Shown here: positions 349 to 19,898 of the stretch, piece after piece
Numbering within the stretch: the first letter of the stretch is position 1
How the letters are laid out: each line of letters starts with the position of its first letter
Assembly (NCBI GenBank): GCA_008632985.1
Contig: QPGO01000146.1
Span: 186,001 to 206,757 of the forward strand
From: Psammoneis japonica
Taxonomy: Eukaryota
Direction of reading: 5' to 3'
Length of the DNA: 20,757 nucleotides
Program-made: the position numbers and the translations under genes
The notes under the pieces: generated by a model
Told to the model about the DNA's origin: nothing
Databases searched by the model: none
What the model saw: only the letters and a program-made list of their open reading frames with translations

Positions 349-1147
349 GGCGGTGCGGATATATTACTCTCGGTGCTTTTGGTTGATGATGGTAACGATG
401 TCGTTCTTTGCTTTTTAGCGATGCATCAAACGGCGTTTCAGCGTGAAATGGGATGTGGTGAACCTCTGTGAGGCGTTTGGTTTGTGCGATCAAAAATTCT
501 GGATCGCGGATCAAAATCGAAACTTCATACATTCTTTGAGAAATGAATTCATCGTTTGTGCATGTTAGTAATAATACAGATTTTCGATACTGTATCTATT
601 CTCAACGGAAAACGATTAACAGCTCATCAAAAAACCGTTAAATTTCATGTGCATCATCTTTTAGAGATGTCCATTGCACTGATTTTTTTAGGAGAGGTCT
701 CGTAGGCGGGCATTTTGTAGACCAAATCACAGATCTTGATGACGTTTCAATGACGTCATCGATTGATTGCGTAGTTCGTGCGGGCGGACGCGCGCCCCAG
801 CGCGAAGGTCCAAGATCGCCGAGATGTACTGCATGATGGTTCTCCTCAAAAGAACCGGTAGTCACAATGATAAGGTTTCGATTTGTGCGTGTCGTTGAGC
901 GAGAGATGCAGTATTAAAGGAAAAGAGAGCTGAGCCAGGAAGCTGAATCGTCTCTTCTTCTTGGGTGGAAATGGCGCTTGCAGTGCAGTGCAGGGAGGGA
1001 TGCATGAAGTGCGTCTCCCATGAACTTCGCAGATTAAACAAGAAAAATGAAGCACTGAAAGTGTGCTCTCAAGGCAAAGGTTCAACATAACGGAATGAAA
1101 AGCTGTGCTTGCATTTTGGATAAACACTTTCGCTCCTTTGGTGGCTG

Positions 1148-1418
1148 TCATTCTGCATCTTTTCTCTTGGCGACCGGTTCTCTTCGTTGTTGGGTTGGTC
1201 CTCGTTAGACCGCATGTAAGTTCGAGTATGTACGGACCTACCGTAAGCCCTTCGTTTCAAGCGTTGACAACCAGCTTTGATCCATCACTTCGTCCGATAT
1301 CCAGAACCTCGTCATTAGGTTATTCCTTGGTCGCTTTTTGAATAGACCAAAGCCCGAAGCCAGTTTTTGCAGAGTAACGTGTCGGGCAACAGCCAAGCGG
1401 CATGCCGACAGATCGATC
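1148..1418 (-). other. Possible 3' exons of a small or degraded spliced gene (..IDLSACRL..WLSTLETKGLR/EPVAKRKDAE*)
   Basis: Candidate 60-bp intron at 1241-1182 (GTAGGT donor, CTAAC branch, AAG acceptor) and a candidate TGTAG acceptor near 1419. I found no convincing start exon. Confidence 0.2.
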
Positions 1419-1804
1419 CTACAAAGGTTCACCACATTGTTGTGCAATACTCTTCCTTTGATGTATCAACGGTTCTATGACTGGCCACCTGAGCCAGGAG
1501 TATGCAAAAGCGGAAGCTGATTCAACAGAAACTCTGGATAACCTTGGTACTTGTGTTGGACAAGTCTTTTACAGCAATAATTTTCCGTTCACCACCAAGT
1601 CCTCCTTGGCTACCGCCGCATCCCTATCGGGTTCTTTTAATCATTGTTGTGATGTTGTTGAGCAGTGACGAAGCAAAACTACCCTAAGCGAGTGTGCATA
1701 ATGGTCATTTCCTTTTTAAAAATTGTTTCTTATACATTGATTAGTTTGATACTTCATTTTCTGTAAGATGATGTGAAAAGCCTATACCTAAAGGATAGGA
1801 CAAT

Positions 1805-2146
1805 CTAGACACAATTCGGATCATAGAAACACTCACAGCAACCGTCACATTTATCCTTTTCATCTGTGCAAAAGGCCTTTCCCTTGAAATGCCACCAGCG
1901 ACAAGACCAATAGTCCTTGGTGCATTGGTATTTGCATCTGCCAAGATCCCAAGTCGGGTCGCCGGGCGGAATATAGCACCACTTGACAAGGTAGAGTTCC
2001 CTATCATCTAGTTCTTGAAAATTGTCGGTGATACCCTGAGGCAGCATCTCATTGGATGACGAAGGAGAAGAGGCTCGAAGATGGTAGTCCTTTGTTCCGT
2101 TGGCACTAGCGATGAGAAAAAGAATGATGCTGGAAGAAAGCTTCAT
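1805..2146 (-). CDS. Secreted cysteine-rich peptide precursor (113 aa): signal peptide, HLRA..REL propeptide, 10-Cys mature domain
   Basis: MKLSSSIILFLIASANG is a signal peptide. A Ser/acidic prosegment ends in DREL (RXL-type site), followed by a W/Y/K-rich C-terminal domain with 10 Cys including CC. Normal Tyr usage, so it lies outside the mutated block. Confidence 0.8.
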   Translation of the reverse strand: MKLSSSIILFLIASANGTKDYHLRASSPSSSNEMLPQGITDNFQELDDRELYLVKWCYIPPGDPTWDLGRCKYQCTKDYWSCRWWHFKGKAFCTDEKDKCDGCCECFYDPNCV

Positions 2147-3118
2147 GAGGTTTGCAGGGTGTTGATGCGGCGTCTTGGGAGTGTTCTTTATTGTCAGTTT
2201 TGGATTTTGTGAGAGCGGTGCTGGTCCTCATCTGATCCGCATTTGAGGAGTCGTGGCGGGATGCGAACTGGGAACGAGAGTCCGAGTCTTGGATGAGGGG
2301 TCAAAAAGCGAACAGTGAGTCACGAGTCTGATTCACGGATAAAGCCCAAAGGTTTTTATCTCAGCTTCCGGAATGAGTGTCCGTTGAGTCTTTCCTGGCT
2401 AGAGTGGACAGTGATCAGAGTGACTCTGTGGGCCATCAGGTCAGAATGACACATGCAACCAAGGAGAGATCTTGTCACAATTCATGGCCTGGTCAAAGGT
2501 CACAGTGGTCTCACACAGAACTTTTGCCAAAAAGGCGGCAGCTGTGCTGTCTGCTTCACCAGAGTTTCGCGAGCAGGGATGAGGTCATGGCACACAGTGC
2601 TGCTGGAGACTTCAGCTCAGATGCCCAGACAATTGAGTGACTGGCATGGAAGAGGCAGCATCCAGAGCTTTGTGCTTCAATGGTGCGGCGCGGGCACTTC
2701 AGCAGCAGTTTGAATGCCCAGAAGATTTCCCAAGAGCGCACTCATCTTGGAAGCAAGCTTGAAAACTGCTGCCCAAGCTTGTTGCAAAACAAACATGCCA
2801 ACCTTGACTTCAATCATCTTGACCTGCTTTTCTGCATCTGGTTTCCTCAAAGTGCTGCACAGGAAAGGTGCGCCAGGGAGGTTCTTGGGGGCTTCTCCTC
2901 AGCCTGCTGCCTGCAGCAGCGCAAGCTCTTGCGTTTTCAGCACTTTGTGTGCTCCAGCACCAAAGTTGGTCTCAGTGATGCTAGACAAGCAGGCTGCACC
3001 TGGCATCCAACTGGGATCTTGCTTTGTTCTGCTGGGTTGATGCACACTTTGCCCCCATGTGCTTGGCAGACAAGAGCCAGCTCTTCTTGTTGGACCTTCT
3101 TGTGTGTGCTTGTGCAGC

Positions 3119-3138
3119 GGGGGGGGGGGGGGGGGGGG
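3119..3138 (+). repeat. G20 homopolymer (poly-Pro on the minus strand: SPESSPPPPPPR)
   Basis: Twenty consecutive G read directly from the sequence. The length may be unreliable in the assembly. Confidence 0.9.
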
Positions 3139-4064
3139 CTTGACTCTGGAGAAAGTGCTGTTGGCTCTGGAGATGCTTCAAGTGGCAGCAAGTTTCTTTC
3201 TTCTTGCAGGGCTGTTTGCTGGCTGCAGACAGAACAAACAGGTGTCAGACACCTCTGTTTCCTTGTGGCGTTTTTCTGGCAAAACATTCATGTGGGAATT
3301 TTGTGCAACATCAAAAAAGAGATGAAGAGGTTGAATTAAAAAATGCAACAGAGACACACAAAAGTGCAGTGCAACATCAGGAGTGACAATGGCACCCAGG
3401 TGGGGATGAAAACAACATCCACGCTGTGATTTCAGGCACAGCGTGTGCACAACAACACAAACATGACAAATTTGGCTGATGCGCCATTTGGCTCACTCAT
3501 GTGGTCTGTCCAAGTGCTCCAGTTGACCACTCAAGATGATGCCATTGTCATCAACATTCCATGTGGTTGCTGCAAGCAACTCACACAGGAAATGTCAAAA
3601 ATGGCTGGTGGCAATGATGCCCTGAATTCAACTGCAGCCTGCATCCACTGTGAATGTGTGGGCACATGCTGTCTGCACTTGTCACTCACCATGTGACATG
3701 TCTGGTGCAGTTGTCACACACACACATTGATCAATGGTGTCACCAGTGGCGTGCCATTGTCAGCATTGAATGCTGCACAAAAAGCACGGGGACAACTCTT
3801 CTGTTGCATTTGTCTGTCTGTTGCCCACTTGTCTCATGGAACATGCGTGAAAGTTCCCATGCTTTGTGGTCTGTCCATGCTTCATCTGACAACTGTTTGT
3901 TCCTCTGACAACTGCTTGTTTTGCACACAGCCAGGTTGCTGCACACTCAGTCAGCTTTTGAGCACCTTGAGCTGCAGGAGGGGCTTGAGGCACAGCTCCT
4001 GGTGAGAGTTCCAAGCACAACTCAACATTTGCTGCACTGCTGCAAAAAGTGAGTTGGCTCACTC

Positions 4065-5819
4065 TCAAGACTGATGGCTGTGTCTCAAAATTCTGTCAAA
4101 CACACATTTCCTGCGCTGTCTTTTTTGGTTCCTTGTAAAGATGCTCAGGAGGAGTGAGAATCTCATCTTGCAGGTGCTGCACACCAGGGAGCTTTCCCTT
4201 CTCCAGCAGAGTGCAAGAAGTGGGCTGTCTAAGGCACAGTTGCCCCCAACAGCCAGGTGGCTCTGTCTCCTTCTCAGCAGAAAAAAAGTGTTGAAAACAT
4301 CATCAAAGACCACACGGTGTTGGGGAGCAATGTTTCTGATCTCACCCAAGCTGACAAAAAGATCAAGCAAGGCAAGAGCAAGGTTGCAGCTGAGGTGGCT
4401 TCTTTCCAGATGTGAGCGCTGGACTGAAGATGTCGTGTGCCAGGCATCCCCAGCAGGTGTGGACATCTCTCAAGCAATGGCAAGAAGGTGCTGGGGAGCA
4501 AGCAGAAAAGTTTGTTGGCGGCACCCAAGGGTGCTGGGAGCAAAGCAGACATGTTGTGCAGCAACACAATGTGATGCTGCCATGAGCAACAGCCCCCCCT
4601 TGCAGTGAGTTGACGTGTGCAAAGGAGTGCTGCTCTTGCCACAATGGAAGCTGTGGTCAGATGACAATTTGCACACCAAATGCACCACCCAGTGCAAACA
4701 CTTGGGCATTCTGAGCAGTGCCACAGCTGTTGTGCTGCAGCTGACCATGCCCAAGCTGAAAAAGAATCTGGGGGGAAATGCATTGCAGCAAATTGCATCC
4801 TCTGAGTCCCTTTGTGACAGGTGTTGCATGGCCAGCATGCTTGAGCCACCTTCAGGAATGGTGCATTTTGCCCCAACAATGTCAAAAAGGGCCAGCTGCT
4901 TGTTGCACAGAGGCAGGGGTTTCAAAGTCTTTCCGCTTCCACCATTGAGACAAATCTGGGTGTTGACCCACATTTCTTGTTTGTTGGGGTTGGTGGGCTT
5001 TGATGAAGACAGACAACAAGAAGAGCACCAAAGCACAAGAAGTCACACATTGCGTGGCTCCTCAAGCAACACAAAAGTTTGCCCCTGCCCCCCTGCTTCC
5101 TCATGGCAAGCTGGATCTCAAGAGCACAGCAAAGCATTTTGCACTTTTGGCCAGTTGTTTTGAGGACAGGCAACTCAAGACAAGCTGGAGCATGGCTTGA
5201 AACAACAGCAAAAAGCAAAGGTCAGACCTCACAAACTGAGCGCCAAGTTGCTTTGGGCAAGTGAGGAGGAGCTGTTCAGAGCTCATGGCTGGAAGCCCGC
5301 TGCAGAGATTGCACGCCCAGCCAACAACATTTGCAGCTTGGGGAGCACATGGTGTGGGGTCTTGTGCACAAGTTCTTGGAGTGCAGCCAAGAAAGCTGCT
5401 TGCAGCCAGCTTCAAAATGGTGCTGCCCTTGCTGCTGCCATCTTCTTGAGCTCCAACTCAGCCACTCAGCTTGCTGCATCTTTGGCCATTTGCAGCTTCA
5501 GCAGGGCTGTGCAGAGTTTCTTAATTTGAGACTTGAGAGTGGCTGGCTGCAGCACCAGATGGGCAAGTGCCCACAGCTTTGTAGATGACAGAAACCACTC
5601 TGCCTGCTTTGGTGGGTGATGACAGTGCAAGAACAGATGCAAGAGATGCACCCCTGGCTGAGGAAGCTTGTTTGCTGGGCCTTGTTCAGCAACACCACCA
5701 GAGGGACTTGGCTTGGTGATTGCACACTTTTTGGCCCCTCTTTTGCTCTGGAACTGCTGTCCCTTGTGCTGTTGTTTGCCTGGCCTGTGTGCCAGGGCTG
5801 CAGCCCCATTGCTTGACAA
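4065..5819 (-). pseudogene. Fossil long reading frame inside the mutated block
   Basis: ORFs 5466-5819, 4470-5036 and 4065-4466 share one minus frame and are separated by TGA stops, as expected from CGA->TGA. Some segments read as protein-like and helical: TLKSQIKKLCTALLKLQMAKDAAS*VAELELKKMAAARAAPF* and LALALLDLFVSLGEIRNIAPQHRVVFDDVFNTFF. Confidence 0.4.
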
Positions 5820-7789
5820 TGACCTGTGCTTGTCTTTCTCCTTGTCTGATGTGCTGCCACAGCTTCAGCCCAGTTTGGCAGCAGCAAAGGCAGCACTGGC
5901 AGTGCCAAAATGCAGTGCATCTTGAAAGAATGAGAGGGGGCTCATTTTTTGCCCTGTCACCAGGGGTGACAAAAGGGTCAAAAGGTGTGCAGCTGGCTGG
6001 CTTCAGGAGATGAGAGGCTTGTTGTTGGTGGTGGTGGGCTCCAGAAAAATCTCCAACTTTGAGCAGCAGAGATCTCTCAAGAAGAAGCTTGTTTGAGCAA
6101 TGCCCCTTGGCAAGCGCCAAGCCAAGCAATCCCTTGCTGACACCACACTGCTCCAGAAGCATTGCAGCCTTTGGGGAAAGTGCTCATGCACTGACTTTCT
6201 GTGAGCTTGGGACCCACCATTCTGCCCCCCAAGATCTTTTGTGCATGTGGGCAACAGAAAACTCCAGCCAAGGAAAAAGAGCTGCAAAAAGCATTGTGAT
6301 GCCAACAGCAGCTGCGATGCACCCCTCTTCAAATGCTTGCCACCTGGGCTTCCTGCTTGCATGCTTGCCCCAATGTTTGGGCTTGGGGCTGCCTTGTTTG
6401 CCCAATGCTGCACAATGACTTTCAGCCACAGTCAGAGAGAAAAGTGCATTTTGTTGCAATTTTTTTGCTCCTGGCACAGCTCCAGCCCAAAAGGTTTTTT
6501 GCCCACAGGGGCTCTGGGCTCCAGATGACCCTTTTTTGCACACAGCACCAAACAACTTCAGCCTTGCAGCTCAGTGTCAGCCAGCGCCACCTTGCAAAGA
6601 AACTTGGCCACAGTGCTTGTCCATGCAGAGTGCCATCATGAACCCTGAGGCAGCTGGCCACACTTTCTCAGCTTTGTGCACAAGAGATGCATTTGGCAGG
6701 GTCAAGCTGCCAAAAATTGCAAAAAATCATGCCCTTTGTGGGCTGCTGTGGCTGCACAGAAGAGCAACTTTTCACACCCCTGCATCACACCCTCTTTTTT
6801 TTCCCTTGCAAATCATCTGCTTTGGCATGCCAGCACCCAAGGGCTCAAAAAAGAGCTGTGTCACACAAAGAGGACACATCTGCCTGATGATGAAAACAAA
6901 GGCAAAGTGAGTGCCAGGTGCTGTGTGCCGCCAGCAGCACTTCCTTTTTTGTGAGTGCTTTGTCACATTGGCTGCTTCTTCTGGCTGAGGTGAGGCATTT
7001 GTGCATGGAAGAGCAGGCTTTGGACCAGTGCTGGTGTGCTGAGAAGTGGTTGTCAGGGGCACATGCACAGCCAGCAGCAGCCAACAAAAACATGCTTGTC
7101 ATTGCTGGCTGCAGGGTTTGCAATGGCTGCCATGCTGGCTCTTCTGGCATGCATCATCCTCAGCAAGATCATTGCATGACTTCTGCAATGTGGCGCACCT
7201 CAGCTGGAGTGCACCTGCTTTGAGAAAAAGCCAATGCAAAAAGTGCATTTGGACAACATGATTGCAGGCAGGACAAGTGCTGGGCACTCATGTTGCCAGC
7301 TGGGGGTGTCTGATGTTGCTGCTGCTGGGAGTCATTTTTGTTTGCAAGTGCTTCATCATGCTGGCCACTGCAGCATTTGCACAGCAAGACAGGGCTTGCA
7401 CCTGGCATTGTCATCTTCAAGCAGTGCTGGCAAAGCTGTGCAACAAGCTCTTGGTCAAGGGTCAAGCTTTGTGTGGAGAGCTGAGCAGGCTTTGGGGCCA
7501 TCAGAGGTGGCAACACAGTGGTTTCCACTTTCCTTTGTAAAATTTTTAATGTGCATTGTCAACATTGTTGACAAGCAGAATTGAAAAATTGCCAGCAAAA
7601 GTGCTCTGCAAAATGAAGCTGTTTCTTGAATTTCATCTGATGTCTCATTGACTTTTCTTGCACAAGCTTCAATCAAATGCATGCAATGTCAAATTTAATT
7701 GGGATCAAAATCCATTTTTTTTGTGATGCATGGTTTGGTTTTCTTTTGATCACAATCAATTTGAACTTGGTTTTAACTTTGTCCTCCTC

Positions 7790-8290
7790 ACTCACGTGCG
7801 TGTGTGTCTTTGCACGTGTGCAGTCTGCAGCACTTTGCGCACGCACGTGACCCACCTTCATTTTTCTTCATGTTTCCCAGATTTGCACAGCCCGTTGGTC
7901 CACGGCATTTTTAGTGTGTGTTTTGCATGCGCAATTTTCTGCACACTTCACAACAGTGCACCCTCTCCCCAAAGTTTGAAAAACAAGAGCGTGCGCTGTT
8001 GTGACTCACGCGGATCCTGCGTGTGGTCGCAAATCTGCAAATCGACAACCGGCCATGGCAGTGAAAGACTTTGCCCCATTGGCCGATGACAGCGGCTCAA
8101 CGTGTGGTGAAACCTGCCATCCTTCTGGTTGGTCAAGATGGGGTTTTATTTGGGTGCAGCTTGAATTTTGTGATTGCGAGTGTGCTGTCACGAAGCTGCC
8201 GTGTCCAGAATGCTGAGCTCTGGCATGTTGTTGTGTGTTGTGTGCATGCACGTCACAAACCAGCTTTTCTGCAGCGTTGGCATGATCGCG
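7790..8290. promoter_or_regulatory. CpG-retaining island inside the mutated block; possible former promoter upstream of a fossil minus-strand gene starting near 7682
   Basis: Many CG sites remain (cacgtgcg, gcgcacgcacgtga, cacgcggatcc, atcgacaaccgg, gatcgcg), but only 2 TA were seen. The promoter role is inference from position. Confidence 0.35.
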
Positions 8291-8324
8291 CATGCCAGAG
8301 TTTTGCATCCAGAATCATCACAAG

Positions 8325-8618
8325 TTGCCACAAATTACACTGTTCAAACAAGGCATGTGCAAAAAGAGGTTCATTGGTTTTTGATGCATTCGCCAACAAC
8401 ACATCCGTCTTCTCCAATTTCTGTGTCCAGACCCAGAAAGACTGCAGGCGGTGCTTGTTCCTGCAGCTCTCAGAATCACACATGTGAAAAGTTCTTTGCC
8501 ATGCATGAAACTCTTCAAAAAAGGCATGCACAAAAAGAGCTTCATTCATTTTTGATGTGTTCACTTACGTTGCATCCGTCTTCTCCAATTTCTGCACCCA
8601 GATCCAGAAAGACCGCAG
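8325..8618 (+). repeat. Diverged direct repeat, ~123 bp units at 8325-8447 and 8496-8618 (period 171 bp)
   Basis: Ungapped alignment with shared cores aaggcatg..caaaaagag and catccgtcttctccaatttctg..ccagaaagac. Many mismatches are CA<->TG or CG<->CA/TG. Confidence 0.9.
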
Positions 8619-8765
8619 AGGCAGAGAGTGGGGAGGCAACCCATTGGAGGTTGCCTGAGTTGTTGGGCTCATTTTAAAAGGCTTCCCAAGTCTCTCTGCT
8701 GTTTGTGGTCAAGAGCAGGGGGGGTCGACTGCAACAATTGCAGCAGCTGCCAATTCCATGTCGAT

Positions 8766-9098
8766 GGGTCGGGAACCAGCAGCAGAAGCTCCCAAATTGG
8801 CAGTGGCAGATGCACCTGCAAGTCTGCATTGCAGCTTCAATTGGTTGCTGTTGTTGTCCTGTGCACTCTCTCACAAAGCATTTTACATTCATGTTTGCAA
8901 TGAACAAGGTGGATCAGAGCAATGTTGCTTCACACCTGACTGGCCCAGAATCAGCTTTGATGCGGGGTCGGGAGCCGGCAGCAGAAGCGACCAAATCTGC
9001 CACGGCGGATGCACCAGCAAGTCTGTGTTGCGGTTTCAATTGGTTGCTGTTGTTGTTCCATGCACTCTCACAAAGTGTTTTGCACTTCTTTGCAATGA
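8766..9098 (+). repeat. Diverged direct repeat, ~135 bp units at 8766-8903 and 8965-9098 (period ~199 bp)
   Basis: Shared gggtcggga.cc.gcagcagaagc, ttcaattggttgctgttgttgt and tttgcaatga. Mismatches are concentrated at CA/TG/CG/TA positions. Confidence 0.9.
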
Positions 9099-11013
9099 TT
9101 TGCCATTGTGAACAGAGTGTCGCTCATTTGAAGGCGTTGCGTTTGGATTGCTTGCCATGTCTCAGTGTCAAGATTGTGCTCTCAACTGCGTGGGAGTGCA
9201 AGCAGAGTTCAAAGAGGTCCAAGCTTGCGCTTGCGAAGGCAGTGGTGCATTTCACTTTTGCTGCAGTGAGCTCTGGCTCTGCCATTTTGTGCATCAGCTT
9301 TGCACCTTTCTCTTGGAATTCAGTTGTTGCCTCTTTGAATTCATTGACAAGCCTTTGTCTCCATCTGTGTCATTTAAATTAAGCGCAAACAACAAAATGG
9401 AATGTTCACAATGCAAACAATTTTAAATTGCAGGTTTTGCAGGAATGGAGGGTGGGCACTCTCACAGGGAAAATGGTTGGCTGTTTCACAGTGAATGGTG
9501 TTGCCTCACAGGACAGTCACGGGCTCCACAGCAACAAGTTTGTCTTTCACAGTTAACAAATTGTCACCACGCACACAACTGGCAAGGTTTGAAACCACAA
9601 AATTTTTAACTGTGACAGATTAAAAAATTCACCATGAGAAAGTTGGTCTGATCACTGTGTTGCGCGCTCTGATGGCTGCACAGACAAACATCGCGCCATT
9701 GCCAAAAAAACACAGCCAATGCAGAGCACAAGATTTGTCATGGCTTCCATGCTTGCTCTTTTGCAATGCTTTCAGGAGACACATGTTTTTGCCTTCTTTG
9801 CAAATTTGTTTTGCAGCTTGCTCCCACACACCACACTCAATGCCACTGTCGTCAACACAGAAAAGTCTCTCCCCAAGGGGCATTTGCACCATGTTTTGGC
9901 TGGCATGCTCCACCCCAAAAAGCCACTGCACAATGAACAGCAGCAGCTGGGCTGAGAATGACAAAGCAAGCTGGCCAACTTTTTTAAGCTGAAGCTCACA
10001 ACCTGCAGCCACACGACGAATTGTGAGTGCAGCACACACAGCAGCATGCTGGTGCTTTCATCGACAGGAGCAAGAAAAAACTGACAAGACAATGGCTTGA
10101 AGTCTTCAACAGCAAACACAATCAGAGCACATTGGCCAGAGCCAAAAGCTGCAACAGGGTGCCAGCTCAGCAGACATGATTGTGAAAGAACGCAACTTGG
10201 CTGCTCCCATTGCAACATGAGCGGATCCACTGCAGCAGTTTTCTTTGGCTGCTGGTGTGTGATGATGGCATAAAGCCAAGCAGCAATGCACAAAACAAGG
10301 CACTTTTTGTGACTGGATTGACTTGTTTCAGATCAACAGAAACTTTCAATTGAGCAAAATTTGGACATGGGACAACAGAAAGGAGCACAGTGAGAGAAGA
10401 AGCTCAACTTTGCTTTGCACCCACCAACAACTTTTTCAGATGACTTTGCGGCTGCCCCCACCCTGTCTCCCACAACATGTAACTGAAGACAAAGAGCAAG
10501 CTGTCATCAAGGATTGCATTGGTGATTGGTTGATTGTTGGTTGAGGGACTCTGGGCAGAGCATGAGGCTCGTGTTTCTCGCTTCCAAAATCATCCAAGAA
10601 CCTTGTCGAGGTTTGAAGCATCGCACGGACCAAACATGGGTGCAAATCCGTGCGAAGCCGATTCTGGCGTTATGAATCTCGTTTGCATGTTTTGCAATGT
10701 ATACTTGACACTACTTCCTGTCCGCATCATTTCGATGGTCGAACGTTTCTCATCAACTTCGCAGCTTTGCCGATGACTGCCCTAAAAACTTTCTACGTTT
10801 TTGGCCCGGATTGCTCCCCAGGATGCGGGTGTTACCATAGTGTAGTTAATTGTTATTCTACGAACGGTCGATTTGAAATGCAGCTTTTTCCGATGAACTT
10901 CCATGAGTCGGCTCTTTAGTCGCAGTTTAAAGCGATTTCTGAACTAGATCTGCATCCAAGAGAAATCAAAAGCTCTATATCACATTTCTATTTAATCGAG
11001 TTGTTCTCATTGT

Positions 11014-11753
11014 TTAGAACAATCCAAAGAACTTCTTCTTATCGTCTCCTCCTTTCTTGAAATCATTGACATTGGGAGCCTTGTAGTTTTTGGAAAACTT
11101 GGGTGCGGCTCCCATGGCGGATTCCGGTCCTCGCTTGGCACGGCTGCCGCTCCAGTCAAGGCCTTCCCCAAAGCCCAGAACGGAAACGGATTGTTCCTTG
11201 CGGTAGCCGCCGGCGGCGTACGCCTTGTCGCTCGCCAACCATGTTTTCTTGTTGCGGGCATTCTTGACATCGGAATTGTCCCAAGATCCTCCGCGTTGCA
11301 TGTACTGTACGTAAGTTTTGAAATAGCATTGTACAAAAAAATATTGGGTGTAAGAGACGACACTCGTGATGACAACGCCCATTCATTGTTACATCCAATC
11401 AATCATATTCTTCTACTTACAGGAATATCTTCCTTTCGGATCTTTCCGGATTTCAGTTTTTCTTTGGCATTAAACATGGGCATGAGATGCGTCGCTTCGC
11501 CTCGCTCCATGGCTTCTTGAAAGGATTGCATAGATCTTGACTTGAAACCTCTTGGTCCCAAACCACCCAAGTTTCCCGGTCGCAGACGCTTTCGTTCTTC
11601 TTCCTTGAATTTCTTGTAACTCTCGGGAGTAAAGCCATCGGGAACATATGCAAAGAGCGCCGTACTACTACGTGTTGGTGACGACGACGATGCAGTAAAC
11701 CCACTCGATACGCCAACAAGAGCAGCAAAAAGAGCAATGCAAACAGTCTTCAT
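11014..11753 (-). CDS. Plastid-targeted hypothetical protein, 207 aa (exons 11753-11421 and 11304-11014)
   Basis: Signal peptide MKTVCIALFAALVGVSSG followed by F and an S/T-rich transit peptide (ASAFAP-like bipartite signal). A 116-bp phase-0 intron at 11420-11305 (GTAAGT...TACAG) joins KEDIP to YMQRGGSWDNSD. The C-terminus is KKKFFGLF. It resembles a diatom/algal uncharacterised family (from memory, not searched). Confidence 0.88.
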
Positions 11754-12293
11754 TTTCTCAAAAGATTTTGTTACGGCGCGTTTCAGAAAAAAGTGTCAAG
11801 AGTGAGTGCGTTGCCCAAGAAGATGTGTCTTTTGCCAACTGCAACAAAGAACAACAGTTGTTGTGAGAATTTTGGGTCGGCATCCCTAAATCGTGGCGAC
11901 GTGTTGGTCGCTTGCGTCAGCAAAATGCCGATGGTTTGCCTGTCTTGCTGTGCAACACGTCAGTGTTCCCGTGACACTTTTCTTACCTAGCCATAATGGA
12001 TGAGTGTGACGTATGCGTACTGGAGATGTACGTGCACGAAAAATTTATATACTTGTCTACGTGCACAGAGGGAAAGTAATGATTGGGATCTTTTGGAAAA
12101 AACGCGGGAAAGATCATTCAATTCCTTCATGACTGCATTACATAATCCACCACCAAACAAATCTTTTCCGTTCCGCATGCAGTGGCACCACACAAATTCA
12201 CTTTTTTTTTTGCAACTGCATTGCAAAACAAGAAAAGTATAGGTAGAGGAGTCACACAATTCATTGACGTTGTAGTAGGAAAAAGCACTAAGT

Positions 12294-13890
12294 ATGGATA
12301 GTAGCAAGAGACTTAAAATCGGTGAAAGTGACGGCCCTCCACGAAAGGAAGAAGAACAAGAGCCTGATGGTTTCAATGTCCTGTTTGAAAACGAGGATTT
12401 GCTGTTGCAAGTCTTGTTGAGAACCGACGCGGAGGATCATGGGCCGCTTCGTTGTTCCTGCAAGACCTTTCAACGTGTTCTCAATTCCAGCGTCTTTCGA
12501 CAAGAACGCTTGAAGAAAGAGTGGGCACAAGTGCATGTCCCTGGGCAGAAAATGGTTCTGGACGGGAACTGTATGGATGATGGGTTTCCCGTGATGCATC
12601 ACGAGGCCAGTATTTTTGTCGACGGAAAAGAGGCTGGATCAGCCAAGCTGGTCTACGTTAATCGGCGTGTTAAGGATGTCCTTCATGTTCCATTTTTGAA
12701 TTATGTGGAAGACTGGTTCGAAGACGGAGACGATGATCTGCATTATGCGGCGAACCTGTTCTTACCGATAGGGCTCGTCCCAAGTTGAATTCTCTTCGAA
12801 AGGCGACAAAGGGGAAAGATCACACCAAGAAAAAACTCTTGTTTATTAAAAGTTTGGATCTATCGGAAGAGTATCGTCGTCATACCTGGGTGGGAGCATG
12901 TGCGCTTGGATGCATGCGTGAGTTTGAATTTGGACGAGGTGACTTGATTATTGATTGGGGGCATTGCCATGTACAGAGGTGATCGTCGCCGACAGCTTGT
13001 CTCCGAGGACGACTTTCGTGATCAGGAACGGTGGGAGGCTCTTATGGAAAATGAAGGAGCTTTGTCTGAGGAGGAAGAAAAGGAAATGGCGGATTTGGGA
13101 GCCAAGCTCGAGGCTCTTGACGTGGCAGACTTGAGGCCGTTTTTACGCGCTGGCTTTGAGCAGCCGGACGAAGTGATTGCTCGCAGGAACCATTACTTTG
13201 TCTTTTGTACGATCGACAAGTTAGTGTGTGAGCCTTCCAGAATGATGACTGGTCAAGAGGCAGAGGCGCTTCCAATCCAGCCTCTAGTGCCTGGTCCAGA
13301 GCCCGAAGAGGATTGTGCCGACTTTAGGGAGGACGACGAGGCAAGCCACGACGAGAGCGATTGGTCGGACGCTTGCTTTGATTATTAAAGAGAAACTGCT
13401 TCGGATGATTTCACTAAGGCTTTGCAGAGATGGGAGCATGTTCAGAATCCAGTGGATTTTGAAGACTTCTCCAAGGAAGACCTGAACGAAATGGAATTGA
13501 ATAGCACGGATGGCGAATCGCGTTTTCGGAAACGAGTAATGGTAATAGAATCACGTTCTTCATCACGGATGCCGCGGGCGAGACAGCCCTTGGACAGTAT
13601 CGCTACAACTCGAGGGACACTATTTTTACCCGGTGAATCATGAATCGTTTCCTATTACGCCAACCGGAGCTGATGGCCTCAACTTTGCATCCTTATGTCT
13701 TGATACCTCGGGCTTTGATAATTCGTCTTCTAGTGATGATCCGGACAAGGATGTTTTATTGGGAAGACTGCAGCGATTGCTGATGTAATCCCCTCTGCGG
13801 CATGAAGAGAGATTTTGAATTCTTTGAAGGTGTCATTGAAGATCTCTACCAATGCTACTTATCCGGACGAGGATGATTCGGGCGGGTAAG
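12294..13890 (+). pseudogene. F-box-like plus GNAT-like protein, disrupted (pseudogene or assembly indels)
   Basis: F-box-like segment LFENEDLLLQVLLRTDAEDHGPLRCSCKTFQRVLNS. GNAT-like motifs LLFIKSLDLSEEYRRHTWVGACAL and LRPFLRAGFEQ. A -1 frameshift near 12762 and a +1 in the G5 run at 12957-12961 restore ...TDRARPKLNSLRK... and ...IIDWGIAMY.... An in-frame TAA at 13386-13388 is followed by coding-like sequence, including DAAGETALGQYR in a shifted frame. The 3' end is uncertain. Confidence 0.6.
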
Positions 13891-14284
13891 CACTTCGACT
13901 TTCGTGATATCTCTACGGTAGGATGAAAACGAAGTGGGATGATTATGCGATCTCAAACTCGTGACTGACATTCGCTCCACGACTGAACCGATTGAACCAC
14001 GACTGAAAATATTCAATGTTCGGCGACAGCAGGTTGGCGATGAGAAGCGGCAACTTCACACGAACAATCGAAGGCTATTTCATGTGTGCACATACGATGG
14101 TGACACCTTTCCTCATACTTAAAAAGTGTCACTCCCATTACGTGGTCGGAGTCCCGGTACGATAGAAATGCGAACCCATCACTACGGAGTTGCGTAAAGA
14201 ACATGCCGCAAAGAACAAAAACGCGAGTCTCACAAAAACAACAATAGCAACAAACGACCTAGCAACAAGAACAACAACGACACC

Positions 14285-15207
14285 ATGCGCTTCAACATCT
14301 TACTGCTCATGCTTTTTGCCCCTCGTGACGGGTCGCCGACGATGAGGTGGTTCTAGGTGAAGGTACAATTTTCACGGGAGGCGAGTCTAACCACACGCAT
14401 AGCGGTGCATGCCGTTTGAAACTCCAGCGTGATGGCAACCTGATTGTCCGACGCCGTGGCCCCTTTTGGACCGTCCCAAACGACCCTGATCCCAGGGAGG
14501 ACTCTATCAGTTGGACCAGTGGTCATCACCAAGTTGGAAGTTATCATGCGAGGCTTCAGAACGATGGAAACCTTCAAGTCATTTTCCACGGATCGGATGC
14601 TGAAGAAGTTGTCTTTTCAACTCATGTGGTATCCTTTCCTGACAATGAGCCGGCTCCGAGTCATGATTTACTCTTTACCGACAACTGCATTCTGAAAATT
14701 CAGAGAAAGTTTCCTGACGGGAGTAAGGACATCATTTGGCGAAACATCCACGGCTGGCTTGATAACTTTTCAGCCGACGAGTATCCCGGACTGGACAATG
14801 TAATGCAAAAGGGCGAGTTTTTTTCGTATCCCAATCAAAACCACGGAACGGTATGTGGCACGGGAGCCAACTTTTGTATGGAGGTACCCTTTTCGCTTCG
14901 ACTCCAACAGGATTGCAACCTGGTGAGCTTTGTCGGACACGACTTTGGGGATGCGGCTGCCGTGGTGTGGTCGGCGGGTGTGGCGCGGCCCCAGTTTGAC
15001 AATTGCTATCTCTTGGTGGACTCGAACGATGTAGCGCTTTATGAAGGTGATTTTGATCCAACGCTTCCGCCCAATTCGAACCGCCCCGGAAAGTATTGGA
15101 GTGTGCCACAGAGTTTTTTTGATGACGCTGGCGGGTTCCAACCGGGTACTTCTACGTACCAGATTCTCATCAACAATGCAGGCCAGATGTATTTGGATTG
15201 GGATTAG
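14285..15207 (+). CDS. Secreted bulb-type (GNA-like, B-lectin) domain protein
   Basis: QxDxNxV-type motifs LQRDGNLIV, LQNDGNLQV and LQQDCNLVSF. ATG at 14285 follows a CAA-rich leader. The signal peptide MRFNILLLMLLPLVTVADDEV is restored by removing one T (~14315) and one G (~14331) from homopolymers, guided by the paralog at 17044. Confidence 0.8.
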
Positions 15208-17043
15208 GGAGGAATCAGAATGATGAGAGTAATTGTTCGGTTGACATTACGCGCTTGTATTATACGAAACAAAGTTGAATTGGGATATTGAGCCAAGAAG
15301 ACGGAGAGTGAGCGACGCGGAGGATGTCAGCAATGCGAATGCGCCAGGAGGATGAGATATTGTGATACTTTCACCTTCAGCATTCCTCTACGTCTATGAA
15401 TGATAGTAGCGTGATAAAAATAGGATGATGATTAGAAACAAAAGCATTCACGAGTAGCGATAAACCTTACGTACCTTCCTCGCCCTTCATCGTGTTGTGC
15501 GCCAAACGCCAAACAACCACACCGCGATGCGGCTCGCTGCTGCGTGGCGCGGACAGACAACATATCATATCTTTTTGCGATTGCGTTGCTTGCTTTCGCA
15601 TCAGTTGTCAACGCTCACGTCTCACGTCTCACGTCACGATGGCTTTGACAACCTCAGCTCTGACAGCCCGATGCATGCCACCATATTGTACTCTATGCAA
15701 TAGTCTTTCGATCAGTACGACTGTGGCAAGTTGGTGGCATTTGAACTTCAATCTGCACTATTGGGCTTGCGCAGAAGGGGCACGGGGCGCACTCTGAACT
15801 ACAAATAATGTAATTGTACGAATAGCTTTCGACGTTGAAAACGGGAGCCATTTCTCCGAAGGATGGGAGAAGCAAATGCAAGGTACTCAAAGGACGGATA
15901 GCATGCCCACAATCGAGTACGAGCCAAACCGGGTGCTTGAAAGGAGATGGCTTGCAAGTTTGAAGCTACAGAAATAAGCCTTTTTGCAAAGAACAAAGCT
16001 CATTTTGTTCATGTCGAGGAAGCGATATCTTGTGTGGATTGGGAGGGATGCAAATCTCACATGGCAACAAGGACAGCCCTGAAGTTTGTTTTCACTGCGT
16101 CTTTCTTTTCAGAGGACAAGGATGATTCGCGTTAGCAGATCTCACCTTTGTTTACCCCGGTGAATAGTTTTGCCTTTTTTCCGACAAATCCACTATTTGG
16201 CTCACCTACTTAGTACTCCTGCAACTCTCTCTCTAGAGAGATTGAAAATTCTGGAAGAACGAGTGGATAGCGGAGCTGAGAAGGCCACATTCAAATAATG
16301 CACTTACAGAGGCGAGCTGCTGTAACTGAAAATGATGCGTGGCATGGAGCGGCAATAGGAGTAGGTCCCGGCCAGTTGTCAAAACTTTACGGCAAGAGAA
16401 TCGACGCCCGAGTGTCACTTTATTTCGTTGTCAGTCAGGAACATTTTCTTTTGCTATTCTTCGCCTATCTTCGATGGTCCAACTTGAGCCTACAGCATCA
16501 TATTGACATCAACGTGGATCACCCCGTCTTGTTTCCTTGACATTCAGATGGAGAGATGAATTGTAGTCACAAGCAGCCGCCGCACGGACGAAACCATTGA
16601 CGAAGACACCAAATGTCAAGTTCTCAATCCCGACCGGGGCCCTCAACCGAGATGACCTCTCATCTAGCTCTCTAGAAGAGCTAAAGAGTAGACGAGGACG
16701 AATTGGAATAGCGAATGTGGATTACTGTATGACGGAACAGTGGTGAATGAGACACCCGCAATAAGACTGCGAAGGTCATCCTCACCCACAACTGCGGCTC
16801 CGTGCGACCCACGACCCGCAACAATAACCACGATTGATTTCACAAAATCGGAAGCATGATGACGAGTGGTCGTGCACAATCACATTTCTCTCACCTTCAT
16901 AGACTCAAAAATTGGTATTCGACAATCGCTCTATGAGTGGTTGTCAACATGGTGTCACAGTCCCGTCACGAGCTTATGCGAACCTTCCGTACTGTCTCAT
17001 TGAATCAACAACAACATAAACAACGAAACAAAGACAGGACAAT

Positions 17044-19898
17044 ATGCGATTCTATCTCTTACTGCTTGTACTTTTGCCTCTTTTGGCTCTCGCCGATGAG
17101 GTCATTTTGAGGAAGGGTACAGTGTTGACGGAGGCGAGTCTCTTCATACCAGTAATGATTCCTGCCGCTTGAAGCTCCAGCGCGACGGCAACTTGATTGT
17201 TTATCGACACGGTCCTTTTGCGCCCACCCCGGGCAACTCTGATGCCTTTGACGAGGTCATTAGTTGGACCAGTGGTCGCCACCAAGTAGGAAGCTACTGT
17301 GCGGAGCTTCAGGATGATGGGAACCTCCAAGTCATTCGTCCGGCGGAGTCAGGCGATGAAGTGGTGTATTCGACACACGTCTATCCGTCCCCTTCAAACA
17401 AGCCAGCTCCTACTCATGAGCTATTATTTACCGACAACTGTATTCTTGAAATAAAGAGGACCTTTTCTGACAAGAGCTACGATATTATATGGGAGAATAT
17501 CCATACTACGCTGGATAACTTTTCGGCAGAGAAGCGTCCCGGAAGGAACAACGTGTTGCAAAAGGGCGAGTTCTTTTCGTACCCAGCTAACAACCATGGG
17601 GCTGTTTGCGGCACCGGAGCCAACTTTTGCATGGATGTGCCCTTCTCAATTCGGCTTCAACACGACTGCAACCTTGTGACTTTTGTCGGACACGACTATG
17701 CAGATGCGGCAGCCATTGTGTGGTCGGCGCGTGTGCCTCGCCCCAGTTTTGACAAGTGTTATCTGCTGCTGGACGTGAACGACGTGGCACTTTACGAAGG
17801 AGATTTTGATCCTACTCTGGCGCCGAATTCGGACCGCTCTGGAAAGTACTGGAGCGTGCCGGAGAGTTTCTTTGACGAGTTGTCGACCGATGGATCCTCG
17901 AAGTACCAGATTCTCATAAACAATGAGGGCAAAATGCATCCTACAACTATGAGACCACCCACTATTGCTCCCACCACTCCGCCTCCTATCACCATTGGTC
18001 CGACAACAGATTCGCCCACGCCATCCCCAACATCTTACAGCGACTTTCTGAGCGGGCTGTTGGCAGAAAGAAGTCCTTGGTCTGTGGATGCTCTGAAAGA
18101 GCCCAGTTCGGCCCAAACCCAAGCTTTCGATTGGCTCTTGGCCGATGAAGTTACCAGTGATTTGGAAGAGCCTGATGAAAATCGCATTCTTCAACGATTT
18201 GCCCTTGCAACGATCTTTTACGCCATGGAGGACGAAGATTTTATGGACGAAACGTGGCTGGAAGCGACAGACGAGTGCACTTGGAGCGGTGTCGATGCAT
18301 GTGGCTCTGAGGGTGGGTTGAAGAATCTAACGATTGATCAAGATAACATTAAAGGCCTGCCGCCGGAACTCGGCCTATTGACGAACCTAGGTGCGATCAT
18401 ATCTCGTTAAGGATTGCTTCTTTCCGCTTGTGCATTCGATCTAACACGATGTTTTCTTCTCGTCGAAAGTACACTTTCATGTGTCTTCGAATGTATACGA
18501 CATCAACGTTGCACCACAAACCAATCTTTTGCCTTCAACCATAGGTCTGCTAACTGACATGAGTAAGTTATTATGTTTGGACCTAATCTCTTCCGGCTCA
18601 AATGAAAAACGAAAAACATTCACACGGTACTTGATTCCATGTCCTACTTTCTAGGGCGATTTGACGTGGGGTACTACGTGGATGGCGCGCCTCTAGAAGC
18701 GGGATACACTGGAGGACCAATCCCCCCTGAGGTGGGCCAGCTGACGCGTCTAAAGGAGCTGCGTTTCGGTGGAGCGTTCACGGGCACGTTACCTCAACCG
18801 ATTTGTTCCCTCGATGAATTAGAACAAGTCAAAGTCGACTGTGACGATTTCTTTTGTGGCGACTGCAGGTATTGCCCAAATTGTTTCGACTCTTATGAGA
18901 TTTCCGTTGAGGCAATGTCGGTGGTCGATCTGGGACCCGATGGAGAATTTGACTTTCTCCAGGAAGCTGGTGGTGAAAATAAGAATCAGTTTTATGTGAA
19001 TAATAGGTTTCTCACGATGAATGACCGAGAAGAATGCGTTGTGTTAGAAAGCCAAAGATTGCCGCCAATACCGCTAGGCCATTCCCTAGCAAATGCCGTG
19101 CTCGCTGGATCCATTATTGGGCAGGGATACAGCGGCGAGACACCGGTGATCCAGGTCTTTGCCTATGCTGGAAACGGCATTGTTGAAGTTGACGACGTCG
19201 ACGCGACAAATAATGAGCAGAACAGAATCGAGCTTCTAACACAGGACGGCGGCGTGTTCAATTTGGATATTAAAGAGTTCGTTCGGGACCTGTATGATCA
19301 AGGAGAGAAGTACTTGGGATTGGCCATGAGTCAGAAGAGCGTCGGAGCATACTCCAGGGTTGCAGACCTGGCTGTCACTCTAGGCATTGATGTGGACTGT
19401 GAGGCTGTCATTTGCTCTTGCTACGAGGCCGCCGTATGCAACTTGGAACTGCCTCCCAAACCAACGGACGCGCGTCATTATGTAATTTACTATGATGATG
19501 AAAGGTGCATAATGCTCAAAGACGGCAACACATCTGAGTGCAATCCTTTGGTCATTGGAAACTGCAGTGATAGCATTCCTGGTTATCCCGCAGAAGCACT
19601 GTGGTGGAGAGACGAACACGGCTTCTGGCACCCATATCTAGACAGTAGCATGTGCATGCAAGCTGGGTGTGGAGAAGAAAGTGTTGCGGAAGGATCTACA
19701 ATTCATATTGCCAAGTGTGATATCAACAACAAGAGCCAATGGTTCGGGAAGTCTGTATGGTCCAGCGACAATTTCTCGATTGAGGAGAGGCCAGACCTCT
19801 GTGCCACTGGAAATAACGTAGGCGATGAAGTCGTTTTGAAAACTTGCAGCTCTGACCATGACTCTTGGAATTTCAATACCGGTGCATCTCAAGACTGA
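17044..19898 (+). CDS. Secreted multidomain protein, ~894 aa: B-lectin, Pro/Thr stalk, LRR with Cys caps, beta-sandwich-like module, ricin-B lectin (exons 17044-18390, 18470-18562, 18655-19898)
   Basis: Signal MRFYLLLLVLLPLLALA. One G is missing near 17090 relative to the paralog. LQRDGNLIVY lectin motif. LRR cap AQTQAFDWL..RILQRFALATIFY..ECTWSGV..C. Plant-type LRRs LPPELGLLTNL, LPSTIGLLTDM, IPPEVGQLTRL, FTGTLPQPICSL. Phase-1 introns at 18391-18469 (GT..CTAAC..AAG) and 18563-18654 (GTAAGT..TAG) keep the frame. C-terminal CIM..IGNC..ALW / CMQA..IAKCD..SQWF repeats. Confidence 0.85.

Follow-up and report, generated by a model that had tools for sequence, protein, structure and literature searches.

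Between two genes of a probable diatom lies a gene-free stretch of 8 kb in which nearly all TA and most CG dinucleotides have apparently given way to CA and TG. The stretch lies within the 20,757 nt of DNA that were analysed (the window), and the block at 2380-10670 (8,291 nt) contains 26 TA sites (observed/expected ratio, o/e, 0.05 by dinucleotide count) and 107 CG sites (o/e 0.21), together with 947 CA (o/e 1.91) and 941 TG (o/e 1.74). A diatom source is suggested by one protein encoded in the flanks, whose only homologues assigned to a named organism come from diatoms; comparison with a protein atlas gave weak leads to diatoms (scores 0.75-0.78). The reading that we favour, with a probability of about 0.6, is that non-genic, at least partly transposon-derived DNA was driven near saturation, in place and on both strands, by two context-specific transition processes. 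One would be a locus-targeted hypermutation of TpA to TpG or CpA (A>G, or T>C on the other strand), of the kind recorded as new mutations in viral sequences integrated in Bigelowiella natans (Mettrop et al., bioRxiv 10.64898/2026.01.13.699255, 2026 preprint). Chemically, the most likely basis would be an enzyme that deaminates the adenine of 5'-T-A; the process appears to be more efficient when a pyrimidine follows the TA. The other would be ordinary decay of methylated CpG to TpG or CpA, which would be slower and act over a slightly narrower domain.

The compositional signature is real and far beyond chance. At the rates of the flanks (TA o/e 0.54 and CG o/e 0.92 on the left, 0.57 and 1.01 on the right) the block is expected to contain about 328 TA and 456 CG sites (Poisson log10 p of about -103 and -85, respectively). 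TA is absent for up to 1,956 nt at a stretch (5583-7537, between TA sites at 5582 and 7538); TA gaps in the flanks have a mean of 25 nt and a maximum of 258. An initial annotation of this DNA had described about 25 TA sites in 8.3 kb, rare CG, a dominance of CA and TG, a complete lack of TA between 5584 and 7536, and flanks normal in both TA and CG, and the counts agree with it throughout, exactly so for the TA-free interval. It had further set the low TA against other intergenic DNA, and gene-poor stretches of the flanks, which are non-coding DNA within the same window, have TA o/e values of 0.57-0.75, so that the block is about ten-fold lower. Trinucleotide o/e values in the block are 0.8-1.3, apart from rare words that contain TA or CG; trinucleotide counts are thus predicted by the dinucleotide counts, and the signature is a dinucleotide-level one and not a motif or low-complexity effect. 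The only tandem repeat found in the block is one 19-mer at 2.1 copies. The borders are sharp, with CG depleted over 2383-10569 and TA sparse over approximately 2190-10670 (Table 1).

Table 1. Segments and repeats of the TA-poor island, with positions in the window.
Feature	Position	Strand	Basis
Core island, depleted in TA and CG, enriched in CA/TG, without recognisable coding capacity	2383..10569	.	Composition, borders, Pfam/Rfam/tRNA scans
Left margin; TA 2 sites vs 7.6 expected, CG density normal (11 sites)	2190..2382	.	Poisson p = 0.018, weak alone
Right margin; TA 0 vs 4.0 expected, CG density normal (9 sites)	10570..10670	.	Poisson p = 0.018
Most eroded segment; TA o/e 0.02, CG 0.10, GC 1.49, AT 0.67, single-copy depth	2383..7489	.	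Composition, TA gap, X1 depth
Nested element of ~2.2 kb, high-copy family, imperfect inverted repeats at ends; TA o/e 0.10, CG 0.46	7490..9683	.	Inverted-repeat alignment, X1 depth, composition
Terminal inverted repeat, left arm (pair I2)	7490..7595	+	Inverted-repeat alignment
Terminal inverted repeat, right arm (pair I2)	9579..9683	-	Inverted-repeat alignment
Internal duplication D3 (8325-8447 and 8496-8618)	8325..8618	+	Identity 79% four-letter, 92.7% purine/pyrimidine recoded
Internal duplication D4 (8766-8873 and 8965-9072)	8766..9072	+	Identity 82% four-letter, 94.4% purine/pyrimidine recoded
Eroded single-copy segment right of nested element; TA o/e 0.05, CG 0.18	9684..10569	.	Composition, X1 depth

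Contigs of the DNA sequencing run X1 cover the most eroded segment at a depth of about 45-62, but a single bin (3336-4002) reaches 433. Over bins 7338-10005, in the region of the nested element, the summed X1 depth is 824-6,714 as compared with about 55 elsewhere, or roughly 15-120 times single-copy depth, and the contig ends at 7499 are loose and variable. The whole signature, including GC o/e 1.4-1.5 and AT o/e 0.67-0.79, is common to two unrelated parts of the island, its single-copy DNA and the nested element. The excess of CA and TG is absent from both margins, and the evidence from the margins is weak (p = 0.018 each).

No Pfam family reaches its cut-off in the block, either among 50 stop-to-stop open reading frames (ORFs) or in the six read-through frames. 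Two sub-threshold matches are located in one ORF, zf_PCFS4 at 21.7 bits (cut-off 27) and PUMA at 16.8 (cut-off 26.4), and the same zf_PCFS4 match is the only one seen in the read-through frames. These ORFs and frames contain no reverse-transcriptase remnant, and in the 5 kb single-copy part their comparison with Pfam recognises nothing viral or transposon-like; Rfam families and tRNAs were not found in the block. A protein search with ORF 8174-8674 for other copies of the nested family gave no match, and ORF 8678-9379 has none in a representative library. Two loci recovered in a metagenome scan through a single 22-nt word (L001 and L002) were discarded as family members, since their composition is normal and the matches are due to chance. 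The possibility that the block is a mutated copy of its own flanks was also rejected, with one shared purine/pyrimidine 28-mer against 0.77 expected, and a BLAST search in purine/pyrimidine space revealed no further duplicates scoring above shuffled sequence (34-45). We note that run X2 is cDNA-like in that it skips intervals bounded by GT..AG or CT..AC at 176-276, 11304-11421 and 18388-18468; none of its contigs lies between 2669 and 10672, which is not counted as evidence here.

The block as a whole is covered by X1 contigs at about 45-65x, the same as the flanks and a single-copy depth. Long X1 pieces carry few differences from the window (8 in 3883-5955 and 3 in 5958-7507), and the right border is bridged by one contig (9603-11309). 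The initial annotation had looked to reads from an independent platform to reproduce the sequence; the block is reproduced, but X1 derives from one sample that may be the source of the assembly itself, and the reproduction is therefore not fully independent. Between 2355 and 9122, six of the ten differences listed between the window and X1 contigs (there are 198 further ones) are exchanges of TA or CG for CA or TG, including TA/CA at 4136 and TG/TA at 3428. Nine of these ten are inside the block and the other, at 2355, is in the left margin.

The internal duplications D3 and D4 provide a record of change within the island. Their combined comparison has 260 aligned columns with 35 transitions and 17 transversions, and 55 aligned pyrimidine-purine steps. 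Eight of the 55 steps have CA in one copy and TG in the other, an adjacent double difference for which 1.0 is expected under independent change (Poisson p = 1e-5). Two paralogous genes that served as control (14227-15194 and 16994-17941) have 3 such differences in 161, against 3.7 expected, and the duplicates differ from the control in this respect (Fisher p = 0.001). The excess indicates that, once the duplicates had formed, each copy resolved its palindromic pyrimidine-purine steps separately, and hence that the pattern reflects mutation and not inherited composition, as the initial annotation had supposed. Transitions follow the same steps, which account for 28 of the 34 that can be classified by context (28 per 132 opportunities, as against 6 per 124 elsewhere; p = 9e-5). 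CG pairs between the copies comprise two CG/CG and seven CG/mutated, and there is also one TA/TG pair. The decay of CG alone, as estimated from these CG pairs, predicts about 3.1 CA-versus-TG pairs against the 8 observed (p = 0.013, with small counts), and the excess would be best assigned to ancestral TA. It is likely that TA, besides CG, was ancestral at many of these palindromic steps and that the direction of change was from TA to CA or TG.

Two accounts would deny that mutation had occurred in place. An artefact of sequencing, polishing or assembly is very improbable: the sequence is present in one sample only and includes a 20-nt G homopolymer at 3119-3138, but X1 covers the whole block at flank-like depth with few differences and bridges the right border. 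We know of no platform error that converts TA and CG to CA and TG on both strands with sharp borders. A composition that was inherited or selected, such that foreign or repeat DNA was already poor in TA and CG or that selection acts against both, is a more serious proposal, albeit an unlikely one. No ancestor sequence was recovered, a simple conversion of TA and CG leaves the shifts in AT/GC and GA/AG unexplained, and the nested family may be TA-poor everywhere, in which case its signal could belong to the family rather than to the locus. However, the CA-versus-TG double differences post-date the internal duplications, the window and X1 contigs still differ by exchanges of TA or CG for CA or TG, and the signature is common to single-copy DNA and an unrelated nested element. 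To our knowledge, TA o/e values of 0.02-0.05 in DNA without a detectable gene are also far beyond any known selective avoidance of TA.

The losses of TA and of CG are more likely to represent two processes than one. Their borders differ by about 100-190 bp per side, and in the nested element the loss of TA (o/e 0.10) is far more complete than that of CG (0.46); it is these differences in border and degree that point to two processes. The initial annotation's proposal of a second process besides CG decay is favoured by the same observations, the margins being scarce in TA but normal in CG. The numbers of CA and TG are nearly equal (947 and 941) and the two are finely intermixed (runs test z = -1.0), reflecting a strand-symmetric process as is expected of a palindromic DNA target; the runs test detects no strand-coordinated conversion tracts in the block.

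A single process of dual specificity, for example one deaminase acting on A in TpA and on C in CpG within one chromatin domain and with no involvement of methylation, would account for the sharing of almost the same 8 kb by both losses and for their common end in CA and TG, and deamination of A as well as C in DNA has been reported for ADAT2-type enzymes (cited by Mettrop et al.). We nonetheless consider it improbable given the TA-scarce but CG-normal margins and the unequal depletion of the nested element. Moreover, the B. natans hypermutations are A>G/T>C at TpA in 230 of 231 cases, with CpG unmentioned in the main text of the preprint, and CG methylation of diatom transposons is a sufficient known cause of CG loss (PMC9998398). 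Insertion of a hyper-edited retrocopy, following A-to-I editing of RNA by an ADAR- or ADAT-like enzyme and reverse transcription, can be largely set aside. ADAR usually prefers a U upstream of the edited A, as discussed by Mettrop et al., but editing of a single strand predicts TG without CA or the reverse, and the two are balanced here. There is also no reverse-transcriptase remnant in the ORFs or read-through frames, the nested element with its terminal inverted repeats is DNA-transposon-like, and the signature runs across the element boundaries.

Conversion of TA and CG, whether in one shot or to equilibrium, was rejected as a full account of the composition, as it misses the low AT (o/e 0.71) and high GC (1.49) of the block and its deficit of GA (0.83) relative to AG (1.12). 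A simulation that includes a 3'-pyrimidine preference and weak A>G at ApY lowers the SSE from 0.64 to 0.07 over ten dinucleotide classes, with a fit that is not unique. Most of the TA sites that remain stand in the context T-TA-A (TAA/TTA o/e 2.2 and TAT/ATA 0.23, relative to the dinucleotide expectation). The only direct support for the 3'-context term is in the transitions, at 5 of 60 versus 1 of 64 (p = 0.11).

A TpA-specific, locus-targeted A>G/T>C hypermutation has been reported from mutation accumulation in B. natans (Mettrop et al.). According to the preprint, two viral regions acquired 231 de novo mutations, of which 230 are A>G/T>C, all of these at TpA; the de novo rate is approximately 1000-fold above that of the rest of the genome, and the genome contains 124 clusters that are TpA-poor and CpA+TpG-rich. 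By the same definition the window is TpA-poor and CpA+TpG-rich in seven consecutive 1-kb windows (3001-9001), with Rho_TpA of 0.00-0.10 and Rho_CpA+TpG of 1.72-2.00, where the cut-offs correspond to 5% tails in B. natans and not in the genome studied here. Loss of TpA to TpG and CpA on both strands is measured in B. natans and probable here, and the preprint likewise describes regional targeting with sharp domains and affected DNA that is mostly unannotatable. There are also differences. B. natans is a chlorarachniophyte, on a different supergroup branch from the probable diatom described here, and depletion is near-total here (o/e 0.02-0.10) but partial in the active NCLDV region of B. natans (Rho_TpA 0.45). 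CpG is also depleted here, whereas the preprint's main text makes no mention of it, and the recognisable component is an inverted-repeat transposon rather than the NCLDV and virophage DNA targeted in B. natans. An effect of the 3' neighbour is suggested here, and the signature is known from composition, that of B. natans from de novo mutations. The initial annotation had suggested an undescribed TpA mutator; a process of this kind does exist, but having been measured in B. natans it is no longer undescribed. In the literature outside paywalled journals we found no report of TpA hypermutation in a diatom, nor of near-total TA loss or of joint loss of TA and CG, and the terms 'TpA', 'hotspot' and 'transposable' are absent from the main text of a diatom mutation-accumulation paper (PMC6604790).

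As in fungal RIP, the change in the island would be a hypermutation by transitions that is confined to a region and to particular sequence contexts, falls on non-genic or repeated DNA and erases coding information, and the TA-poor margins, for which the evidence is weak, might be comparable to leakage beyond the target. RIP (C>T at CpA) makes TpA from CpA, though, and would raise TpA/ApT and lower (CpA+TpG)/(ApC+GpT); the block has values of 26/375 = 0.07 and 1888/887 = 2.13, the reverse in both, and RIP was rejected on this basis. The initial annotation had listed Pol-eta-like synthesis among candidate chemistries. The Pol-eta motif is WA, with A>G at AA and TA, and mutagenesis at WA is a poor fit, given that AA is enriched in the block (o/e 1.29, as against 1.11-1.15 in the flanks) and not depleted. 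The tRNA target of TadA reads U-A-C, and TadA-derived editors favour Y-A-C. The natural target adenine of the TadA/ADAT2 enzymes follows U, which fits 5'-T-A, and these tRNA adenosine deaminases are the candidate enzyme family of Mettrop et al.; an enzyme of this type may be responsible here. Editing of animal mobile elements by APOBEC and ADAR is similarly a context-specific deamination directed against invading sequences (discussed in the same preprint), but APOBEC acts by C>T at TC/CC, and ADAR targets RNA, so that its mark in retrocopies is strand-asymmetric, unlike the strand-symmetric change seen here. Decay of methylated CpG is a counterpart for the loss of CG. The block has a CpG deficit (o/e 0.10-0.46 among its segments) with a matching gain of TG and CA, and the CG/TG and CG/CA differences between its duplicates represent decay in progress; such decay is unable to remove TA. 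In diatoms, DNMT5a is established as a methylase of transposons at CG (PMC9998398), and the CG loss of the island would probably originate from such methylation.

The first measurement of TpA-directed hypermutation dates from 2026 and concerns a single species. Its occurrence close to saturation in a probable diatom would show that it is not limited to one chlorarachniophyte, that it can coexist with and yet remain separable from CpG methylation decay, and that it can erase its target completely, which would explain the missing annotation of such islands. Diatoms are genetically tractable by CRISPR knock-out, as with DNMT5a lines (PMC9998398), and the enzyme question is thus directly testable. 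For annotators the signature would offer a simple compositional marker of ancient silenced insertions, and a warning that methods which detect gene transfer or viral DNA by dinucleotide content will be misled by such regions. We give roughly even odds to the broader proposal that diatoms share B. natans-type TpA hypermutation, that it acts beside CG methylation on silenced islands, hits DNA transposons as well as viruses, prefers T-A-pyrimidine and proceeds to saturation, leaving first-order Markov noise. If this is true, genome editing directed at adenine would be widespread as a defence in the SAR supergroup, and would have shaped the intergenic DNA of algae in a way not recognised before.

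Between 2380 and 10670 the window contains 26 TA sites (observed/expected, o/e, 0.05) and 107 CG sites (o/e 0.21), and the same dinucleotide count gives o/e values of 1.91 for CA, 1.74 for TG, 1.49 for GC and 0.71 for AT. The flanks of this block have TA at 0.54-0.57 and CG at 0.92-1.01, rates at which about 328 TA and 456 CG would be expected in the block (log10 p about -103 and -85), confirming the loss of TA and CG and the excess of CA and TG described in the initial annotation. The longest stretch lacking TA is 1,956 nt (5582-7538), against a mean TA gap of 25 nt in the flanks. Other non-coding DNA in the window does not share the depletion, as the gene-poor portions of the flanks have TA o/e values of 0.57-0.75. 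Trinucleotide counts are predictable from dinucleotide counts, which makes this purely an effect of neighbouring bases, and a tandem-repeat search of the block found no such structure apart from a 19-mer present 2.1 times at 3881-3920. A 20-G homopolymer at 3119-3138 could be real, or could be a weak spot of assembly or polishing.

The TA-scarce and CG-depleted domains have different borders, leaving a margin of 100-190 bp on each side in which CG is normal and TA few (left margin, 2 TA where 7.6 are expected; right margin, none where 4.0 are expected; p = 0.018 for each). Summed depth of matching contigs from sequencing run X1 is 824-6,714 over bins 7338-10005, versus about 55 elsewhere, and an imperfect inverted repeat encloses the high-depth stretch. 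We interpret this stretch as a 2.2 kb inverted-repeat transposon that belongs to a high-copy family and lies within older DNA. Erosion of this element (TA o/e 0.10, CG 0.46) is milder than that of its surroundings, with TA at 0.02 and CG at 0.10 to its left and 0.05 and 0.18 to its right. Because the borders differ, and because the younger element has lost nearly all TA while keeping about half of its CG, a fast TA process plus a slower CG process is favoured over a single one. The bin 3336-4002 has an X1 summed depth of 433 versus about 55 around it, indicating a second, lower-copy repeat within the 'single-copy' part, where the 19-mer also sits. Nothing in the island reached the Pfam cut-off (50 separate ORFs; six frames read through stops), and Rfam family and tRNA scans of it gave no match.

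Coordinates of features of the island and its right flank
Feature	Position	Orientation	Basis or remark
CG-depleted domain	2383-10569		
TA-scarce domain	~2190-10670		
Imperfect inverted repeat, ~105 nt	7490-7595 vs 9579-9683	arms opposed	bounds high-depth stretch
Nested element, read as transposon	7490-9683		
Duplication D3	8325-8447 / 8496-8618		inside nested element
Duplication D4	8766-8873 / 8965-9072		inside nested element
Region of X2 cDNA-like contig	10879-11778	minus	omits 11305-11420
ORF	11403-11795		hydrophobic, signal-peptide-like start
ORF	12279-12788		weak F-box match, E 6.7e-4, just below Pfam cut-off
First tandem paralogue	14227-15194		
Second tandem paralogue	16994-17941		weak B_lectin match, E 3.9e-4, below Pfam cut-off
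ORF with 35 homologues	17100-18410		

Expressed-looking genes lie on both sides of the island, and there the contigs of a second run, X2, skip GT..AG-type intervals. Although its record says 'DNA?', X2 resembles cDNA: three intron-like intervals are skipped and the genic flanks alone are covered. The interval omitted on the minus strand (CT..AC, or GT..AG on that strand) points to a small spliced gene with its 3' end about 200 bp from the island. The top eleven of the 35 homologues are 51-62% identical to their ORF, and all five whose source organism is named belong to diatoms (four Seminavis robusta, one Corethron). A protein atlas likewise gave a weak lead to Bacillariophyta, so the host is probably a diatom; as none of the named proteins was nearly identical, the DNA does not come from the annotated Bigelowiella natans genome. 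The tandem paralogues share about 71% DNA identity, the second runs on into a leucine-rich-repeat region, and their named homologues are diatom LRR proteins.

Mutation and inherited composition can be compared in the duplications D3 and D4. Their copies are 79-82% identical in four letters and 92.7-94.4% in purine/pyrimidine coding, so the differences are mostly transitions (35 versus 17 transversions over 260 columns), and 28 of 34 classifiable transitions fall at pyrimidine-purine steps (p = 9e-5). CA in one copy faces TG in the other at 8 of 55 aligned pyrimidine-purine steps, where 1.0 is expected with independent sites (p = 1e-5), whereas the control, the lectin-like paralogues of the right flank, which are more diverged than the D3 and D4 copies, has 3 of 161 with 3.7 expected (duplicates versus control, Fisher p = 0.001). 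Such a pair, two adjacent transitions, is produced when an ancestral palindromic TA or CG turns independently into CA in one copy and TG in the other. Two CG/CG and seven CG/mutated pairs occur between duplicates, from which CG decay alone predicts about 3.1 of the 8 pairs observed (p = 0.013, on small counts); the excess suggests that the other pairs were once TA. Six of the ten differences listed between the window and X1 contigs (2355-9122, nine in the block) are TA/CG to CA/TG exchanges, and 198 further differences exist.

CA (947) and TG (941) are practically equal in number and randomly interleaved (runs z = -1.0), consistent with changes on either strand of a palindromic DNA target. Simulations in which TA and CG become CA/TG, whether in a single round or in balance with background mutation, reproduced the levels of TA, CG and CA/TG; both missed AT (0.71), GC (1.49) and the deficit of GA (0.83) relative to AG (1.12), which is equalled by TC (0.83) and CT (1.12). 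Surviving TA lies mainly in the context T-TA-A (TAA/TTA 2.2 and TAT/ATA 0.23 relative to expectation). An extended model, in which TA followed by a purine is ten times less mutable and weak A>G occurs at ApY, cuts the misfit (SSE) from 0.64 to 0.07 with G+C at 45-48% against the observed 49.6%, although the fit is non-unique. The modelled A>G process may thus prefer a 3' pyrimidine (3'-context test in the duplicates, 5/60 versus 1/64, p = 0.11). Since the GC/AT shift is seen in the nested element as well as in the older DNA, it is probably part of the mutational signature. Pol-eta-like synthesis (A>G at WA), a candidate of the initial annotation, fits poorly because AA is enriched in the block.

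The best-supported explanation, to which we give a probability of about 0.6, is the central proposal of the initial annotation, that a second, locus-targeted process would make A>G/T>C changes at TpA alongside CpG decay; the direction of change at TA, the enzyme, DNA methylation and a role in defence are inferred. CG to TG/CA is explained by 5mC deamination, and it is established that DNMT5a methylates diatom transposons at CG (PMC9998398). One dual-specificity process behind both losses is improbable given the differing borders and the CG kept by the nested element, and a composition inherited or selected is just as improbable given the CA-versus-TG pairs of the duplicates and their scarcity in the control. 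A retrocopy of edited RNA is very unlikely with CA and TG so evenly matched and interleaved.

Artefact as the source of the block sequence is equally unlikely. Of the words sampled from the block, 73% occur in X1, a DNA run; its contigs have depths of about 45-65x over the block, similar to the flanks, its long pieces differ little from the block, and one contig (9603-11309) bridges the right border. X1 stems from one sample and could be the very data from which the assembly was made, and it may therefore not be an independent source.

The TpA process had been proposed as possibly undescribed, and that part does not stand, since a process of this kind is described in Bigelowiella natans (Mettrop et al., bioRxiv 10.64898/2026.01.13.699255), the one directly relevant paper in the full-text literature covered. 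There, 231 of 302 nuclear point mutations in mutation-accumulation lines fell in two viral regions, one an integrated NCLDV of 186 kb and the other a virophage of 25 kb, where the rate was about 6e-7 per site per generation. A>G/T>C accounted for 230 of these 231 mutations, each of them on TpA; an ADAT2-like deaminase is the proposed enzyme, and the genome has 124 clusters of windows poor in TpA and rich in CpA+TpG, most of them without annotation. Seven consecutive 1-kb windows here qualify under its cluster criteria. CpG and diatoms are absent from its main text. The other openly accessible full-text literature covered contained no account of this kind of mutation in a diatom, nor did a term search of the main text of a diatom mutation-accumulation paper (PMC6604790). 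New in the present case are the probable diatom host, a nearly total loss of TA, a CpG decay that accompanies it yet can be told apart from it, the presence of a transposon among the targets and, possibly, a preference for a 3' pyrimidine.
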